Positions 26,106 through 35,358 of a stretch of 64,000 nt of DNA are shown piece by piece (the first letter of the stretch is position 1; each line of letters opens with the position of its first letter). This DNA comes from Acidimicrobiales bacterium. GTDB taxonomy: Bacteria > Actinomycetota > Acidimicrobiia > Acidimicrobiales > SZUA-35. The DNA is taken from positions 9,234 to 73,233 of the forward strand of contig JBLINY010000009.1 of assembly GCA_047638695.1 (NCBI GenBank). Direction: 5' to 3'. The notes under the pieces were generated by a model. The model ran no database searches and had not been told where the DNA came from. It was given only the letters and a program-made list of their open reading frames with translations. The translations under genes and the position numbers were made by a program.

Positions 26106-26918
26106 ATGAGGCTGACCCGGCACGATCAAGATCTCGGATTGAGGCCGCTGACTGCTCGGTCGCTTGTGGTCAGCATGTTGCTTGGAACACACCCGCCTCG
26201 CCTCCCGGCCCATGCCCTCGTGTCTTCGGCCGCGCTCTTCGGTATCAGCGAGGGAGCATGTCGCACCGCACTCAGTCGACTGGTGGCGAGCGGCGAGATT
26301 ACGAACGACGATGGCTGGTACGCCCTCGGGGCCGATCTCATCAATCGGCAGCGGAGCCAGGATGTCGGACGCGCGACCAGGCCGACACCGTGGGACGGCA
26401 GGTGGCGCACCCTGATAGTTACGGCCGAGCGTCGTTCGGCCACCGACAGAACCGACGCCCGAAGTCGGCTGCGTTCAGCTCGCTTCGCCGAGCTTCGCGA
26501 AGGCATCTGGACCCGTCCCAACAATTTGCCAGAAAGCCCGGTCGTTGCAGATCTCGCTGGCCGAGGCTGGCTGGCCGCCGAGGTCACGTTCGATGACGGG
26601 CTCGACCCAGAAGACTTGTGGCCATTGGCCCGGTGGCGACACACGGCGATCGGGCTGCACACGCTGATCGAGCAGCTGACACCTCGGCTGGAGCAAGACG
26701 ATCCGTCAGATTTGGCCAAAGGCTTCCTGGTCGCCGCAGCCGGTCTACGGCAGTTCAAAAGCGATCCGTTGCTGCCCGATGAGGTGCTGCCGGCAACATG
26801 GCCGGGGGCTGAGTTCCGTGAGGCCTATGACCGATTCGACCAGAGTTACCGCCGGGTCCTCCGCCAGTTCTTGCAGGAGGCGAAGGGTCAGACTGACGCT
26901 GGCCAGACTTGCGGATAG
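26106..26918 (+). CDS. PaaX-family transcriptional repressor
   Basis: 270-aa ORF. N-terminal winged-helix region (TARSLVVSMLLG...ALFGISEGACRTALSRLVASGEI) and PaaX C-domain pattern (WDGRWRTLIV...GIWTRPNN). Divergent from the desaturase gene. Confidence 0.75.
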   Translation: MRLTRHDQDLGLRPLTARSLVVSMLLGTHPPRLPAHALVSSAALFGISEGACRTALSRLVASGEITNDDGWYALGADLINRQRSQDVGRATRPTPWDGRWRTLIVTAERRSATDRTDARSRLRSARFAELREGIWTRPNNLPESPVVADLAGRGWLAAEVTFDDGLDPEDLWPLARWRHTAIGLHTLIEQLTPRLEQDDPSDLAKGFLVAAAGLRQFKSDPLLPDEVLPATWPGAEFREAYDRFDQSYRRVLRQFLQEAKGQTDAGQTCG

Positions 26919-27688
26919 TGCGGACCCGTGAACGGCTGTCCCTCGACCTGACCGTCATGAACGAAGCCAGACGCCATCCCTTCCTCCCATAGGTAGGTGG
27001 CGTCGTCGCCGATGTAGCGAACGGTGTATCCACGCCGCTGACGGTCAGCGCGTGTGTTCGGCCCTGCGTAATGAACGGTCATGGCGTGGAAGGCAATGAC
27101 ATCCCCAGGCTGCATATCCCAGGAGAGGATGGCGTGCTGATCTCGCTCTTGTTCGTAGTCAGGGATTTCTTCGTAATTCGGGTTTCGGGTGTACGACGTA
27201 CCGCCCGGAGCGAATGGTTCTGGTTGGAACCACCGATCCCACTTGTGCGATCCGGCGATGAACTCGAGGCCCCCGCTGTCGAGCGTGACCTCATCGAGGG
27301 CGAGCCAGAACGACAGGACCTGACGACCACGAACCGGCCAGTATGGCTGGTCGTTGTGCCAGCGCGTCGGGGCATCGGTGGCTGAGTCCTTGACGAACAG
27401 TTGGTCATAGAGGAGGCGGACAGACTTGGCGCCCATGAGCTCTGCAGCGAGCCCGGGAAGGGGAGAATCCAAACAATAGGCGGCGAAGTCAGGGTCGTTC
27501 TCCCAAACCCGAATATTCCCATGGAACCTGCCCCCCGACTCGATCTCGTAGCCGTGAAAGAACGGGCCGGGGTTGGCGATATCGCGGTCGATGGCAGCGG
27601 CCAGTTTATTGACCCAAGCGCCATCGACGACCCGGGGTATCAGGACAGCCCCGTCGCGTTCAAAAGCTTCGATATCGGCTTGCAGCAT
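26888..27688 (-). CDS. Phytanoyl-CoA dioxygenase (PhyH) family 2OG/Fe(II) oxygenase
   Basis: 266-aa ORF. HxD (RWHNDQPYW), distal His (AFHAMTVHYAGPN), Arg (RRGYTVRY). 31-nt convergent overlap with the PaaX gene. Confidence 0.8.
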   Translation of the reverse strand: MLQADIEAFERDGAVLIPRVVDGAWVNKLAAAIDRDIANPGPFFHGYEIESGGRFHGNIRVWENDPDFAAYCLDSPLPGLAAELMGAKSVRLLYDQLFVKDSATDAPTRWHNDQPYWPVRGRQVLSFWLALDEVTLDSGGLEFIAGSHKWDRWFQPEPFAPGGTSYTRNPNYEEIPDYEQERDQHAILSWDMQPGDVIAFHAMTVHYAGPNTRADRQRRGYTVRYIGDDATYLWEEGMASGFVHDGQVEGQPFTGPHYPQVWPASV

Positions 27689-27714: not shown

Positions 27715-30099
27715 TCATCGGTGTGCGTCCCCGGTCCAGGGATCCTCGCCCAGATAGCGGTCGAAGGCCCTCAACGGGTGCCGCTCGGGATCGAGCCGCG
27801 TCGCTGTGTCCCATGGTTCGAACGCATTGGTCACGTTGGCCAATCCGGTTTCGGCCAGTTCCGGGTAGTGGCGAAGAAGCACACTCTTCAGGTTGTTCTG
27901 GTCGATCCAGTCCATTCCCTCGGCCGAGTACACCTCTTCCCGATAGTCGGTGGTGTAAAAGCGGTCGGCCTGAAGGCGGCGACTGGCATTGAGAATGAAG
28001 ATCTGGAAGAGGGTTTCACCGAATCCGAAGCCCGTGGGTCGATTGCAGTCGGATTCGGCCAGGGTCCCAACCAACAGATCGAGACTCTCGACGTCATCGC
28101 CATAGATGTCGGTGATCTTCTTCACCACAGCTTTGTCGGTGGTGAGGTCGTCGAAGCTGTGCAGCGGATTCAAGCCAAGCTGACGCCGGAACTCGTTGTA
28201 TCTGGGCACACCGCGCTCACGGGCCCGCAGGATGTCCACCGTCCCCATGTCGTGCACGGGATTCCCCGGGATGCTGAGCTCCTGCATGAACCGGGGGTAA
28301 TTGTTCAGCGTGAGGGCGCCCGGGTGCTGGACACCGAATGAGTAGAAGAGGTCGGGCATGCCGAGACGTTGGGTGATCTTGTGCGATGCCGCTTGTCGAC
28401 TGGCAGCGAACGGCACTTCTGCTACCAGGTCATCCGTGGCGTGACGCCTCAGCTTGAGCGACTCTGGCAGCAACGAGTGAAGGCGGTAGACCTCGACAAA
28501 CTCCTCGCTAAGAGCAAAGGGCGAGCCGTGCTTTTCTATCTGATTGCCAACAAGGCCACCAAGCTCCGGGTTCGGGACATTGAAGCGGGCGACCGTCTTG
28601 CGGTCCTTGGCTGCCCTGAATCGATACGTCAGTAGCCCGTACCAGTTCGTGTTGAGTCCGCTGTCGAGCGCCCGGTTAGGGAGGATGGCCGGCGTCCACT
28701 CGACCGAGTGGATCTTGGCCGTGACCGCAGCGTTTACCAGCCGGGCGACGTTGAAGAGCCGATCGTCGTCCCAGGTGGGGTGATGCGCTTGTAGGTGATC
28801 ACATATGGCGTTGTGTTCGAGCGTGAACAACGTGTGCCACATGGCCAGCCCCACCCACCAGTTCCGCACCATGCCTGTCTTCTCGACCCCGTCCTTGCCG
28901 ACAGGCAGCGTGCCATCCGGCTCGACGCGTAGCTTGCCGTTGAGCCCTGTCCGCAGTTCGTCCTGCGTCGCTTTATCGCTGCCATAGACCTGCGAGGCAT
29001 CCCACCAATGCGTGACCTCGTTGATGAATGTCACGGGTGCGGTGTCGGCCGCCTGCCCGTGGGTGGGATCGGGCTGGGTTCGGCTGACGAACATGTTCTG
29101 CTGCCGGTAGCGATCGCGAGCCGGGTCGTTCTCGGGAAGCGGTATTTCGATCGGTCGAAGTCGATCCCAGGTCATGTTCTCGCCATGGGTGATCCAATCG
29201 TGGTTCTGGAACTGAATCCAGGAGGCCGCCAGCAGATTGAGAAATGGCACCTCTTCCATCTCGCCCTCGCGACGGAGCAGCTCGAGACTGATTCGTCGAG
29301 GATTGGGGGTGAGCAGCTGATCACCGGTTTCGGGCTTTGTGACTGCTTCGGCCACGTTTCGGCTGAACCGGGTTCCGGCCGCGCCCTCTTTCGGGTCCTC
29401 CAGGTTGTTCCAGCTGCCATCAGCCGTGCGGTAATGACTGACGCCAGGTGGTGGCTCCAGACCAGACTGCTGGAATCCCACAAGCTGGTCCTTTGGATAC
29501 GTCGACTTGAGATTCCGTCGATTCAGCTTCTCGCGCATGTACGCCAGCGTGAGAATGCCGGTGTACAGCCGCTTGCGATACCAGTTGGTCCAGATCTTGT
29601 CGCGGTAGTTCTTGCCCAGTTTCTGCGTAAGCGGCTCGATGATGCGGCATCCAGCGAGGCCGATGCCATGGCCGATCTGATAGCGCAGAGTGGCGCCTAG
29701 TTGTGGACGACGTCGGGGGTTTGGGGCAATCGGCAATTGCGGACTCGGTGGGGGAGCAAGCAGCTCGTCACCATCGAAGTAGCGGATACCTGGAACGAAG
29801 ACATCGACACCCGATTCGTCGTTGTTCCGCGCTAGCTGCACCATGTGCATCCAGTCAGCGCGGTTAGCGGGCGTGATTTCAGACAGGTCGCACGCCCACG
29901 CGTAGTGAGCCGCGGCCTCGCTGTAGTTCCCGAGATGAAAATGGGCGAGGCCCAAGAGCGCCCGGCTGGCCCCTGTCGGGTCACAAACTGCAGCGGTGGC
30001 CAAGCGATCGGCTGCTTCGTCGAAGCGGCGCGCTTCTAAGAGATCGATCGCCTTGTCACGTTCTTGCGCCCACCCCTGTGGTTTGGCTTCGTTCGTCAT
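27715..30099 (-). CDS. Heme peroxidase-cyclooxygenase superfamily enzyme, fatty-acid alpha-dioxygenase (PIOX)-like, with an N-terminal TPR-like extension
   Basis: 794-aa ORF. YRTADGSWNNLEDPKEGAAGTRFSRN. Distal-His motif ASWIQFQNHDWITH (H300). WHTLFTLEHNAICD. Catalytic-Tyr/proximal-His motif SEEFVEVYRLHSLLPE (Y538, H541). These are collinear with plant alpha-DOX and COX motifs as I recall them. Residues ~20-70 look TPR-like (ALLGLAHFHLGNYSEAAAHYAWA). Confidence 0.85.
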   Translation of the reverse strand: MTNEAKPQGWAQERDKAIDLLEARRFDEAADRLATAAVCDPTGASRALLGLAHFHLGNYSEAAAHYAWACDLSEITPANRADWMHMVQLARNNDESGVDVFVPGIRYFDGDELLAPPPSPQLPIAPNPRRRPQLGATLRYQIGHGIGLAGCRIIEPLTQKLGKNYRDKIWTNWYRKRLYTGILTLAYMREKLNRRNLKSTYPKDQLVGFQQSGLEPPPGVSHYRTADGSWNNLEDPKEGAAGTRFSRNVAEAVTKPETGDQLLTPNPRRISLELLRREGEMEEVPFLNLLAASWIQFQNHDWITHGENMTWDRLRPIEIPLPENDPARDRYRQQNMFVSRTQPDPTHGQAADTAPVTFINEVTHWWDASQVYGSDKATQDELRTGLNGKLRVEPDGTLPVGKDGVEKTGMVRNWWVGLAMWHTLFTLEHNAICDHLQAHHPTWDDDRLFNVARLVNAAVTAKIHSVEWTPAILPNRALDSGLNTNWYGLLTYRFRAAKDRKTVARFNVPNPELGGLVGNQIEKHGSPFALSEEFVEVYRLHSLLPESLKLRRHATDDLVAEVPFAASRQAASHKITQRLGMPDLFYSFGVQHPGALTLNNYPRFMQELSIPGNPVHDMGTVDILRARERGVPRYNEFRRQLGLNPLHSFDDLTTDKAVVKKITDIYGDDVESLDLLVGTLAESDCNRPTGFGFGETLFQIFILNASRRLQADRFYTTDYREEVYSAEGMDWIDQNNLKSVLLRHYPELAETGLANVTNAFEPWDTATRLDPERHPLRAFDRYLGEDPWTGDAHR

Positions 30100-30162
30100 T
30101 TTCCCCCCAAAACTTCGGCCCTGCCCGAGGCCGGTTGCCGCCCTGACCTGGCCGGACCCTAG

Positions 30163-30184: not shown

Positions 30185-30302
30185 ATGCCAGGTCATAGAT
30201 GGCGCAGGTAGTGGGGCCCGCGTCCCACTCGTCTGATTTCGCCATCTGGTCTAGGTTTGCGCTGGGCGGAGGACGAGGTGGACCAGTCGGGAGGGACGAC
30301 CG

Positions 30303-31913
30303 GTGGGGAAATGGAATGCAAGCTCGGTCAAGGCCGGGATCCAGCGACGACGGTTCCTAGCGAGCTGGGTTCTAAGGCGAGCGTTCTGGAACCGATTGGC
30401 CACGTTGAAGTTCGGCGGCCAGAAGGCAACGGTCATTCCCGAGCCGTCCAGCGATGGGCGGTGGGTCAAACTCATGCCGCTTGGCCAAAAGTATCCAGAA
30501 CTCACGGTCGGAGGCGTGGTGGTTGCCGACCACGTTCCTCGGGATGAGGCTGAACCGCTCAAGCAGAAGGTCACCCGCCTGCAAGCTGTTGGTGTTCGTC
30601 GAGTTTCCCCAATGCAGCCCGGGCTACCATCGGTGCCGCCCGATGCCGACAAGGCCTTGTCGTGGGCATTCACCGGCCGTCACGCTGGCCTGTATCCGCG
30701 TCCCCAGCGGCCGGCTGACCTCGGGCTGGGTGTCGGCTCCGACGGCCTTGCTCGCCAGGTCAACAACCGCGAGGGAACGCTGGGCGCGCTGGCCGTGGCA
30801 AGCCCGTATGCCGCATACCTGAGGGCTGCTGGCCCCGGCCGATTCGAGTGGAATCTCGCTGAGCTCGGCGCGTATGAGTGTCACGACGGGCTTGTGAAGT
30901 TGGGAGCCAAGGTCGACTTCGTACTCGATCCACAGACAGGATGGCTACGCGCCGGCCACATCGAGACGGCGCTGGGATCGGTCCGCCCCGGTGATTCGGG
31001 GTGGGCGAGTGGCACACGGCTCGCAGTCTGCTCGATCACCACTCATGCGTCGCTGGTGCGGCACTTCAATTGGTTACACCTCACGAGTGGGGCTCCGCTC
31101 GAAGCCATCACCCGCAACCGACTTCCTCACAGACATCCGGTTCGTCGGTTGCTTTGGCCGCACGTCTTTGGAACTCATGCAAACAACGACCTTGTGACAC
31201 AACTTCAGATGGCGAAGGGCGGAGAGTTCGAATCGATCTTCAGTTTCACTCACGACGCCCTGCTTCAGCTGTTCGAGGACACCACGGACCAGTTTCAGTT
31301 GGCCGCTATCAATCCGGCCCTAGATGCCGAGCAGCGCGGCGTTGACCTGCCCGAGCTGGTGGCGCCAGCGCAGGAGAATCGGTGCAGCCTCCTCGACGTC
31401 TTCGAGCGTCATGCCCAGCGGTACCTGGCCCTGTACTTCAACTCCGATGAAGAAGTCGCAGGTGATCCGGACATCGCAGGATGGCTCGCCGACCTCGATG
31501 CCCAATTGCCAGGTGGAGTCAGCAAAATCACGGGCAAACCTCCGACGCTTCGAGGATTGGCCTCACTGGCGGCAACCCTCATCTACTTGGCGACGGTCGA
31601 ACATGAGATTACGGGTTCGGGACTCTGGGACTATCAGCTGTGGAACGACACGTCGCCTGTTCGGGTTTATGAGGACGGCCGAAATGTCCCTCTCGATGTC
31701 TACCAGAGATTGATTAATGCTGATTTCAACCTCAACGTCAGTCGAACACCGCTGCTGGCCGATTTCTCTTACCTCGCGCTCGACGCCCGCGGTGAGCAAG
31801 CGTTCAAGCAGTTCACCCGGGACCTCGAACGACTGCAGCGATTTATGGATCTGGGCGACGCTGCCCCGTGGCGCATGGAACCGAAGCGGCTGAAAGCCAA
31901 CATCAACGCCTGA
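30303..31913 (+). CDS. Lipoxygenase homologue lacking a PLAT domain (mini-LOX-like) with a non-canonical ligand set
   Basis: 536-aa ORF (GTG start). HASLVRHFNWLH (H254, H259) matches LOX HxxxxH. LPHRHPVRRLLWPHVFGTHANNDL...GGEFESIF matches LP..HP....PH..T..IN. ATVEHEITGSGLWDY (H434) matches QHA.VN/HxGQ..Y. The C-terminus PWRMEP....KANINA matches PY.YL.P....NS.xI. The position of the 4th ligand is Gly438, and the C-terminal residue is Ala rather than Ile/Val. Confidence 0.7.
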   Translation: MGKWNASSVKAGIQRRRFLASWVLRRAFWNRLATLKFGGQKATVIPEPSSDGRWVKLMPLGQKYPELTVGGVVVADHVPRDEAEPLKQKVTRLQAVGVRRVSPMQPGLPSVPPDADKALSWAFTGRHAGLYPRPQRPADLGLGVGSDGLARQVNNREGTLGALAVASPYAAYLRAAGPGRFEWNLAELGAYECHDGLVKLGAKVDFVLDPQTGWLRAGHIETALGSVRPGDSGWASGTRLAVCSITTHASLVRHFNWLHLTSGAPLEAITRNRLPHRHPVRRLLWPHVFGTHANNDLVTQLQMAKGGEFESIFSFTHDALLQLFEDTTDQFQLAAINPALDAEQRGVDLPELVAPAQENRCSLLDVFERHAQRYLALYFNSDEEVAGDPDIAGWLADLDAQLPGGVSKITGKPPTLRGLASLAATLIYLATVEHEITGSGLWDYQLWNDTSPVRVYEDGRNVPLDVYQRLINADFNLNVSRTPLLADFSYLALDARGEQAFKQFTRDLERLQRFMDLGDAAPWRMEPKRLKANINA

Positions 31914-34131: not shown

Positions 34132-35358
34132 ATGGACGAGTTCACGGCCAAGCTGATCGAGGGTATGCACGCCGACTTCGCGCCGGGGCGAGGCGAGCCC
34201 GAACTCGGCCTCGACCGTGGCCACCAACCGGGGACTCGTCCGATCCACAGTTCAGGCATCAGCGCGGTGGGTTGGTTTCGTGGGACGCATGCGGCGGCGC
34301 GCTACTGCACAGCTCCCCAGTTTGGGCGATCGTGGACACCCGTGACGGTTAGGTTCTCGAACGGCAACGGTGCCCCCGACCCTGATGGCGTGCGCCAAGT
34401 CCGAGGTATGGCCGTGAAGTTTCATCTTGGGGAGACGACGTGTGACGGCGAGGGCCCACACACCACGGCCCACACGACGTGCGGGGTTTTGAAGTCTCCC
34501 GCAGAGTCCGATCTCGTCTGCATGTCGGTTCCCATGTTCATGGTCAAGGAGGCCGAGGGCCTGCTCGACTTCGAGAAGGCCTATCTTCCTCGGGCCGTGC
34601 GTCGACCGGGTCTGACGAAACGGCTCAAAGCGATGGCCAGCCTCATACCTTTGCCTACGACCGATCCGGGCACCCTGAAGTCCGGAAACAACGGCCTCAT
34701 CGCCTACGCCCAACGGACGCCGGAGGCGCGCGCTTTCATCGCTGCCAACGCCATGTTAGGGCCGCCAGACAGTTACGGACGCACTGCCTACCACGCCGTG
34801 CACGCGTTCGAACTGGAGGGAGAGTGCCCTGATGGACTGCATCAGCACGGCGAGATCTGCCCGGGCCGGCAGCGCCACATGGGTCGATTCTCTCTGGAGC
34901 CGGGCGATGGAGTTCGGCTCGAGTATCAGGACGGCGACAGACCGGCGGATGGTCAACGGCCGTTAGCGACCCTAGAAGATCTGGAAGCTGACTATCTGAA
35001 ACGCGAGCTCGAGCGACGACTCGATCGATTCGTCAGTGTCTTCAACCTACGAATGCAGCTGGCCGACCCCTGGGACGACACCTCGGACCCGACAACTGTG
35101 TGGCCGATGACTCGCAAGCGGGTGCTGATGGGATCACTGGTACTCCATCACATTCCTTCCGATCAAGATGCCGGGTGCGAGAAACTGAGCTTCAACCCGG
35201 GTCAGCTAGCGCCAGGCATGGGGCTGTCGGATGATCCCGTGCTTCGAGCCCGAGTTGCGGTCTACGAACAATCCCAGGCCCATCGAGAGGCACAGACCTG
35301 CCCGTTTGCCCATCGAGCTACTGGTTCGGCTCCGTTAGAGCGCTCCGCACCTGTTTGA
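34132..35358 (+). CDS. Catalase-related hemoprotein (mini-catalase; srpA / allene-oxide-synthase size class)
   Basis: 408-aa ORF. Distal-His region RPIHSSGISAVGWF. TPVTVRFSNGNG....RGMAVKF (catalase core pattern). Proximal-Tyr motif RARVAVYEQSQAHR. It is much shorter than typical ~480-750-aa catalases. Confidence 0.8.
   Translation: MDEFTAKLIEGMHADFAPGRGEPELGLDRGHQPGTRPIHSSGISAVGWFRGTHAAARYCTAPQFGRSWTPVTVRFSNGNGAPDPDGVRQVRGMAVKFHLGETTCDGEGPHTTAHTTCGVLKSPAESDLVCMSVPMFMVKEAEGLLDFEKAYLPRAVRRPGLTKRLKAMASLIPLPTTDPGTLKSGNNGLIAYAQRTPEARAFIAANAMLGPPDSYGRTAYHAVHAFELEGECPDGLHQHGEICPGRQRHMGRFSLEPGDGVRLEYQDGDRPADGQRPLATLEDLEADYLKRELERRLDRFVSVFNLRMQLADPWDDTSDPTTVWPMTRKRVLMGSLVLHHIPSDQDAGCEKLSFNPGQLAPGMGLSDDPVLRARVAVYEQSQAHREAQTCPFAHRATGSAPLERSAPV

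Follow-up and report, generated by a model that had tools for sequence, protein, structure and literature searches.

A TPR-headed, alpha-dioxygenase-like haem protein and its clade across six bacterial phyla

What kind of haem enzyme carries a TPR domain at its N-terminus, and does that domain belong to the enzyme or to the gene island in which the enzyme sits? The question is raised by one gene in a 64,000-nucleotide stretch, of 62% GC, from an Acidimicrobiales bacterium (contig JBLINY010000009.1), this whole stretch being what we call the window. The gene is an intact open reading frame (ORF; P0001) of 794 residues on the minus strand at 27715-30099, with its stop codon at 27715-27717; a sequence-only reading made earlier had placed an ORF at these positions, and the ORF does exist, although its strand was missing from that reading. 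Judged by its PF03098 and alpha-dioxygenase (alpha-DOX) matches, the complete ORF encodes an alpha-DOX-like haem protein with a TPR head, and the same matches make it a member of the alpha-DOX lineage of the peroxidase-cyclooxygenase superfamily. We consider it likely that the protein is a cytoplasmic, haem-dependent fatty-acid dioxygenase of this lineage, within a distinct clade that is TPR-headed, carries a C-terminal tail and has spread horizontally.

The catalytic domain and its N-terminal head

The catalytic domain occupies residues 223-749 (27853-29433, minus strand). It matches the animal haem peroxidase family PF03098 (An_peroxidase) at an E-value of 5.7e-108 and 362 bits, against a cut-off of 25, and covers model positions 1-523 of 530, a full-length match by which Pfam places the protein in the peroxidase-cyclooxygenase superfamily. 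Amongst solved structures, the best sequence matches are to rice alpha-DOX (4kvj, E 5e-111) and Arabidopsis alpha-DOX1 (4hhr, E 6e-104), whilst those to a cyanobacterial peroxidase (8s6c, E 5e-30), to cyclooxygenase (COX, ~1e-17) and to lactoperoxidase and myeloperoxidase (1e-8 to 1e-9) are weaker. Identity is 37% to the rice and 35% to the Arabidopsis enzyme over ~570-610 aligned residues, and reaches 44-46% with cyanobacterial-type homologues. By sequence the protein is thus closer to alpha-DOX than to COX or the true peroxidases, and the Foldseek order agrees: with the full-length AlphaFold model (pTM 0.80) as query, alpha-DOX structures rank top at target-normalised TM-scores of 0.71-0.76 (rice 4kvl, E 2.4e-32, TM 0.76), with COX at ~0.6.

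The active site was compared residue by residue with the rice enzyme, whose chain index equals the native numbering plus 3, an offset checked by the phenylalanine found in the tyrosine column of the Y379F mutant chain 4kvl. Y538-R-L-H541 (28477-28488; this and the following sites are on the minus strand) corresponds to the catalytic Tyr379 and the proximal haem ligand His382, aligns column for column with both the rice and Arabidopsis enzymes, and carries the Y-R-x-H motif in 49 of 49 close relatives. The substrate carboxylate site is equally constant, H464 (28708-28710) aligning with rice His311 and R707-R708 (27976-27981) with Arg558-Arg559, each in all 49. In the rice enzyme His311 serves both substrate carboxylate binding and catalysis, and we take the carboxylate residues His311 and Arg559 to set its C2 regiochemistry. 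The distal histidine, H300 (29200-29202), aligns with rice His157 and is a histidine in 44 of the 49 close relatives, with Q296 four residues earlier aligning with rice Gln153. Across putative alpha-DOXs the distal histidine is only partly conserved (Kim et al., PMC8720084). The three motifs quoted in the sequence-only reading are all present, WIQFQNHDWITH at residues 294-305, EEFVEVYRLHSLLPE at 532-546 and ALLGLAHFHLGNYSEAAAHYAWA in the head at 47-69, and its numbering of Y538 and H541 is correct. The distal histidine and the Tyr/His pair that it named are borne out by the rice alignment, and its caveat that Y538 and H541 might fall outside the columns of the catalytic tyrosine and proximal histidine does not hold in the alignment with the rice and Arabidopsis enzymes.

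Ahead of the catalytic domain, residues 134-196 (29512-29700, minus strand) are modelled by AlphaFold as two long helices (134-162 and 178-196), and the alignment to 4hhr begins here, at query residue 173. The second helix contains a conserved motif, VWTNWYRK..GILTLAYMRE, and lines up with the helices at the N-terminus of Arabidopsis alpha-DOX. Plant alpha-DOX binds membranes by amphipathic N-terminal helices (PMC8720084, PMC9305512), and we infer that the helices in residues 134-196 are a membrane-facing base domain. The 794-residue protein has no predicted signal peptide and no transmembrane helix, its N-terminus is hydrophilic and its maximum 19-residue hydropathy is 0.99; by these features the haem protein is cytoplasmic, and the dioxygenase probably sits at the membrane surface. 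No NCBIfam model matches the 794-residue protein, in keeping with the unspecific label "peroxidase family protein" under which NCBI records list its relatives.

By its predicted structure the N-terminal domain (residues 7-96, 29812-30081, minus strand) is a module of two TPR repeats and a capping helix, which we divide into TPR1 (~9-42), TPR2 (~43-76) and a cap at 77-96 that includes the invariant N93. AlphaFold places helices at 9-22, 26-39, 44-56, 59-70 and 77-96 with pLDDT of 94-98, in the full-length and the N-terminal-only model alike, and the top 50 Foldseek matches in the PDB are all TPR proteins, the best target-normalised fit being to CTPR2, a designed protein of two repeats (1na3, TM 0.86, root-mean-square deviation 1.6 A). 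Pfam TPR_16 matches residues 15-68 significantly but just short of its gathering score of 32.7 bits, the whole protein scoring 29.6 and the isolated N-terminus 32.0 (E 1.6e-7), and Pfam TPR models match 32 of 36 relatives' N-termini at E <= 0.01 (best 6e-10). Aligned across six phyla, these 36 N-termini have A69 and N93 invariant and Y59, A62, P103, L113 and P123 conserved at 90% or more; canonical TPR packing positions are found at A29 and P41 in repeat 1 and at G50, A62, Y66 and A69 in repeat 2. Predicted fold, structure search, cross-phylum conservation and Pfam matches therefore agree with the earlier suggestion that the first ~100 residues are TPR-like, and the AlphaFold check proposed with it returns five helices in a TPR fold at pLDDT >90. 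Two local departures were seen in the window protein: the usual Asp-Pro at TPR position 32 is replaced by Ser-Glu, and a DLS insertion at residues 71-73 (nucleotides 29881-29889), in the loop after TPR2, is lacking in most relatives.

Between head and base domain lies a post-TPR segment with a Pro-rich linker (residues 97-133, 29701-29811, minus strand), in which P103, L113 and P123 are the positions conserved across phyla. The segment is extended, with the family consensus VxVxVPD..YFDRD.LLA.P..P.LP, and precedes the linker; residues 97-133 reach a pLDDT of 79-89 when the N-terminus is modelled by itself and have low values in the full-length model. A profile search of 1.84 billion representatives, in which generic multi-TPR proteins dominate, gave no evident case of the N-terminal module on other proteins; the 12 single-stretch full-profile matches that were examined are all truncated or frameshifted fragments of this same dioxygenase family.

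A head of this kind could in principle be an artefact of ORF calling, with residues 1-100 untranslated and the true start downstream, near residue 100, as the sequence-only reading had itself cautioned; an in-frame methionine does occur at residue 84. The called start is the first ATG (30099-30097) past an in-frame stop, however, and a Shine-Dalgarno-like run, GGGGGG (30103-30108, minus strand), lies 3 nt 5' of it. Protein-level conservation of the N-terminal segment extends over relatives in six phyla, whose own starts fall at the equivalent position; homologues of 780-810 residues, 59-68% identical to the query, align with 98-100% of it, N-terminus included, and the segment folds with pLDDT >90 and is matched by TPR models in 32 of the 36 relatives. 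We regard the chance of a start-site artefact as negligible, and rule it out on the cross-phylum conservation of the N-terminus together with the G-rich ribosome-binding site 5' of the ATG.

Distribution, C-terminal tail and neighbouring genes

A scan at one genome per species returned 80 loci, in which the protein occurs in two forms. The long form, with ORFs of ~784-810 residues that match the query from residue 1-43 to 794, was found in Acidimicrobiia and other Actinomycetota (including metagenome-assembled genomes (MAGs) of Mycobacterium), Chloroflexota, Bacteroidota, Burkholderiales (Pseudomonadota), Myxococcota and Rhodothermota. In the short form (ORFs of ~580-620 residues), found in cyanobacteria, Streptomyces, Acidobacteriota and others, residues 173-763 alone are matched, at 43-47% identity. 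In a quick maximum-likelihood tree with midpoint root, the TPR-bearing proteins come together in a single clade (SH-aLRT 99), the window protein falling in a small subclade with Acidimicrobiia MAGs, whilst the plant enzymes group with cyanobacterial short forms and with Pseudomonas on the opposite side of the tree. The high identity kept across distant phyla points to spread of the TPR clade by horizontal transfer. An orthologue is present in a cultured member of the Bacteroidota, Segetibacter aerophilus NBRC 106135 (L013); it is ~58% identical to the window protein from end to end and 66% identical within residues 165-794. Three TPR-less basal proteins (L037, L044 and L045) have signal-peptide or lipoprotein-like N-termini, such as LLGAC in L037, and the ancestor may have been exported before the clade turned cytoplasmic and acquired its TPR head.

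The clade has a second hallmark, overlooked in the sequence-only reading, in a C-terminal tail (residues 765-794, 27718-27807, minus strand) with the consensus DT...LDP.RHPLRAFDPELK.DPW.GDA.R. Wherever the contig reaches the C-terminus of a TPR-bearing relative the tail is there, and it nearly always runs ~30 residues past an AFEPW motif; two basal TPR-bearing proteins (L032 and L033) have the first half of the tail alone (17-19 residues). Short forms stop 3-16 residues past the AF.PW motif, and the basal TPR-less L037 one residue past it. On the sequence comparison, one branch gained both the TPR head and the C-terminal tail. A different conserved C-terminal extension, of ~296 residues after AFKPW, was seen in a tight clade of short-form homologues from Pseudomonas, Alcanivorax and Moraxellaceae (L055, L057, L063, L072, L074, L076 and L077; ORFs of 914-975 residues), and Pfam gave no match within this ~296-residue extension.

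The sole widely conserved neighbour of the clade is a lipoxygenase-like gene. In the window it is divergent from the dioxygenase gene across a 203-bp gap (30303-31913, plus strand) and encodes a PLAT-less protein of 536 residues, assigned by Pfam Lipoxygenase (E 2.8e-5) and by a PDB match to 15-lipoxygenase (E 5e-10). Such a gene adjoins the dioxygenase gene at ~20 of the 43 clade loci and at none of the 39 short-form ones, and occurs in three arrangements: same-strand downstream (gaps of -7 to +65 nt), same-strand upstream, and divergent. The adjacency is concentrated in two subclades, the window's own (6 of 7 members) and one of Burkholderiales and Actinomycetota (13 of 13). The Chloroflexota and Bacteroidota subclades keep head and tail next to other genes, such as those for P450, GMC oxidoreductases and FMN reductase. 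Patatin-like phospholipase genes lie near several clade loci (e.g. L001 6018-8291 and L015 6600-9422), and a cyclase-AAA regulator gene near at least 10. The L001 patatin protein carries a cNMP-binding domain, and a nucleotide cyclase regulator is encoded at other clade loci and in the window, a combination that hints at cNMP control over the liberation of fatty acids ahead of the dioxygenase step. A further protein of ~425 residues adjoins the TPR-dioxygenase gene in six long-form loci (e.g. L033 3481-4728 and L036 12639-13916) and in no short-form locus; the two members scanned gave no significant Pfam match.

On the other side of the dioxygenase gene, 26 nt downstream, lies a gene for a PhyH-family 2-oxoglutarate dioxygenase (26888-27688, minus strand; PF05721, E 2.6e-32), which is probably co-transcribed with it. 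PhyH enzymes serve the alpha-oxidation of lipids in eukaryotes too. The 3' end of the PhyH gene overlaps that of a convergent PaaX-type regulator gene (26106-26918) by 31 nt, and the window's PhyH, desaturase and PaaX genes have no counterpart among 82 related loci. Further out in the window are the desaturase and PaaX-type regulator genes, a DyP-like gene with a partner of 213 residues and unknown function, a mini-catalase and a cyclase-AAA-TPR protein. The mini-catalase (34132-35358, 408 residues) has as its best solved relative 3e4w (E 1e-23), the 33-kDa catalase-related protein of Mycobacterium avium subsp. paratuberculosis, with true catalases at ~1e-14. One other locus alone, in an Acidimicrobiia MAG (L004), has the lipoxygenase-like, DyP-like, unknown, mini-catalase and cyclase genes all in common with the window. 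The 203-bp divergent region of the window holds a palindrome with 6-bp arms (AGTGGG-N8-CCCACT, 30210-30229), which could be an operator; the equivalent intergenic region of L004 is without the palindrome and so gives no sign of a conserved operator.

Rival readings of the chemistry and of the head

By analogy with the plant and cyanobacterial enzymes, a hydroperoxide would oxidise the haem, which would in turn oxidise Y538 to a tyrosyl radical. A free fatty acid, bound carboxylate-first, would lose a hydrogen from its C2 to this radical, and addition of O2 would yield a 2-hydroperoxy fatty acid, which might then give an aldehyde one carbon shorter and CO2 or be reduced to the 2-hydroxy acid. 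More speculatively, the hydroperoxide product of the lipoxygenase-like partner could prime the haem. The surroundings support a role in lipid metabolism, with lipoxygenase-like genes adjacent and patatins nearby in the clade, and with desaturase, PhyH, DyP-like and mini-catalase genes in the island of the window.

Alpha-DOX-type chemistry, argued by analogy, is what this evidence best supports, and the sequence-only reading had likewise favoured a fatty-acid dioxygenase over a simple peroxidase; what carries the preference is the great excess of the alpha-DOX over the peroxidase matches, together with the radical tyrosine and the carboxylate site. Membership of the animal haem peroxidase superfamily and the peroxide-handling neighbours (DyP-like and mini-catalase) would suit a plain haem peroxidase acting to clear H2O2 or organic peroxides, but the true peroxidases match far more weakly (8s6c at 5e-30, lactoperoxidase and myeloperoxidase at 1e-8 to 1e-9) and the radical tyrosine and carboxylate site are invariant, which makes such a function very improbable. 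A closer competitor is a tyrosyl-radical fatty-acid dioxygenase that is not alpha-oxygenating, and which attacks another carbon, as the cyanobacterial 10S-DOX and the fungal linoleate dioxygenases do, or acts on another lipid, for instance one made by the lipoxygenase-like or desaturase neighbour. Co-inheritance with the lipoxygenase-like gene speaks for it, the P450s and GMC oxidoreductases beside other members would fit further processing of oxygenated lipids, and the TPR clade, at 35-46% identity, branches apart from all characterised alpha-DOXs. We nevertheless judge it unlikely, as the Y-R-x-H motif and the His/Arg-Arg carboxylate site, which place C2 by the tyrosine in rice alpha-DOX, are invariant, and the COX matches are ~90 orders of magnitude weaker than those to alpha-DOX. 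Three observations nonetheless count against an alpha-DOX function: the TPR clade stands beside the branch of characterised alpha-DOXs, as its sister, and is not nested within it; 5 of the 49 close relatives have another residue in place of the distal histidine; and AlphaFold confidence, from the shallow alignment used, is low in parts of the catalytic domain, among them the Arg-Arg helix (689-718) and the loop before Y538. Since the clade lies outside the characterised branch, regiochemistry and substrate are extrapolated by analogy, and given the sister position we class the protein as belonging to an alpha-DOX-like subfamily and do not call it a proven alpha-DOX.

As to the head, the sequence-only reading saw in it a hint of docking, for example to neighbouring enzymes or to the TPR-bearing regulator. 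The TPR is equally conserved beside P450s, GMC oxidoreductases and unrelated genes, and since it persists amongst such different neighbours, docking to island proteins is not supported; head and tail are both kept in Chloroflexota and Bacteroidota with other neighbours, so that the TPR belongs to the enzyme clade and is no adaptor of the island. We infer that it serves the enzyme as a built-in module for protein binding or self-association. Our leading guess for its ligand is the clade's own C-terminal tail, bound within the chain or between subunits, as suggested, though not proven, by the gain of head and tail on the same branch; the lipoxygenase-like partner ranks second, and is a candidate ligand for part of the clade alone. 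Some findings tell against binding of the tail. The co-occurrence of head and tail stems from a single evolutionary origin, and covariation between TPR (1-100) and tail (765-794) is not enriched, with 0.26% of pairs at z > 3 against 0.34% for TPR versus rest (mutual information with average product correction, 135 non-redundant sequences; the top pairs look phylogenetic). Moreover, the last residues of the tail vary and helix A1 lacks a conserved Lys/Asn, which makes a carboxylate clamp of the EEVD type unlikely.

The contrary proposal, which concerns the TPR alone and is compatible with the enzyme assignment, is that the head is a dedicated dock for the lipoxygenase-like partner, or for the island's mini-catalase or cyclase-STAND-TPR regulator, and so builds a two-enzyme oxylipin complex. 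The dioxygenase and lipoxygenase-like genes do stay paired in three gene orders, and translational coupling is suggested at several loci by an overlap of 7 nt or a spacing of 0-19 nt. Both the lipoxygenase-like adjacency and the TPR are confined to the TPR clade; the recurrence of the cyclase-AAA regulator gene near clade loci is a further point in favour. The Chloroflexota and Bacteroidota subclades, however, have TPR and tail yet, at the locus itself, no adjacent lipoxygenase-like, catalase-like or cyclase gene, and we hold a dedicated dock to be doubtful. A more elaborate possibility, which we rate as decidedly improbable, is that head and tail turn a monomeric alpha-DOX into a regulated assembly, in which the TPR would clasp the tail of its own chain or of another subunit and so gate the substrate channel or build a dimer, much as the EGF-like domain helps to form that of COX, the coupled lipoxygenase-like partner, in the subclades that have it, would complete a two-enzyme oxylipin synthase with a hydroperoxide-primed haem, and a cyclase-STAND protein would exert control in Actinomycetota. 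Were this true, it would amount to a widespread and so far unrecognised bacterial oxylipin signalling module.

Significance and relation to known systems

The TPR-headed, tailed form is a widespread, unstudied branch of a known enzyme family. Putative alpha-DOX sequences were reported from Actinobacteria, Proteobacteria, Acidobacteria and Bacteroidetes by Kim et al. in 2021, who trimmed N- and C-terminal extensions from their alignment without discussing them (PMC8720084). In the searchable literature we found no paper that joins the peroxidase-cyclooxygenase superfamily with TPR and no description of a bacterial alpha-DOX/lipoxygenase gene pair. The remark in the sequence-only reading that such a module is not associated with this superfamily thus stands for the searchable papers but not for the genomes, where the module is not rare and defines a clade in six phyla. 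The clade bears on the role of a protein-binding domain in the superfamily, a matter without precedent in that literature, and on whether bacteria other than cyanobacteria alpha-oxidise free fatty acids. A characterised member would also offer an entry point to conserved lipid-peroxide gene clusters of soil and freshwater bacteria. Alpha-dioxygenases are wanted as cofactor-free biocatalysts for fatty aldehydes, and the cultured orthologue in Segetibacter aerophilus makes work on the clade practical.

Amongst known systems, the plant alpha-DOXs (rice 4KVJ/4KVK/4KVL; Arabidopsis 4HHR/4HHS) share with the window protein the fold, the catalytic and carboxylate residues and the N-terminal helices of the base domain, whereas the window protein has ~130 additional N-terminal residues (TPR, cap and linker) and ~30 additional C-terminal ones, is bacterial and, as predicted, cytoplasmic, and falls in a different clade. 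The characterised prokaryotic alpha-DOXs are three cyanobacterial enzymes only (PMC9305512), namely CsDOX, CalDOX and LepDOX (PMC8720084, PMC9305512), whose Nostoc and Coleofasciculus homologues are 44-46% identical to the window protein over residues 173-763. Enzymes of this cyanobacterial type, of ~580-620 residues, begin at the base domain and have neither TPR nor tail; they are not found beside lipoxygenase-like genes, and they group with the plant enzymes.

COX (PGHS-1/-2) has in common with the window protein the superfamily and the Tyr-x-x-His arrangement of radical and ligand, but differs in its weaker match (E ~1e-17, TM ~0.6) and in substrate orientation and chemistry. It bears a small EGF-like domain N-terminal to its membrane-binding helices, which contributes to dimerisation. 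Topologically this domain stands at the position that the TPR takes in the window protein, whilst EGF and TPR are themselves unrelated. The head in turn resembles the short TPR domains (CTPR2/CTPR3, 1NA3/1NA0; Hop, CHIP, SGT and Tah1), superposing on CTPR2 and sharing with these domains the canonical packing positions, but it consists of two repeats and a cap only, has no conserved carboxylate-clamp residues and, unlike them, is fused to an enzyme.

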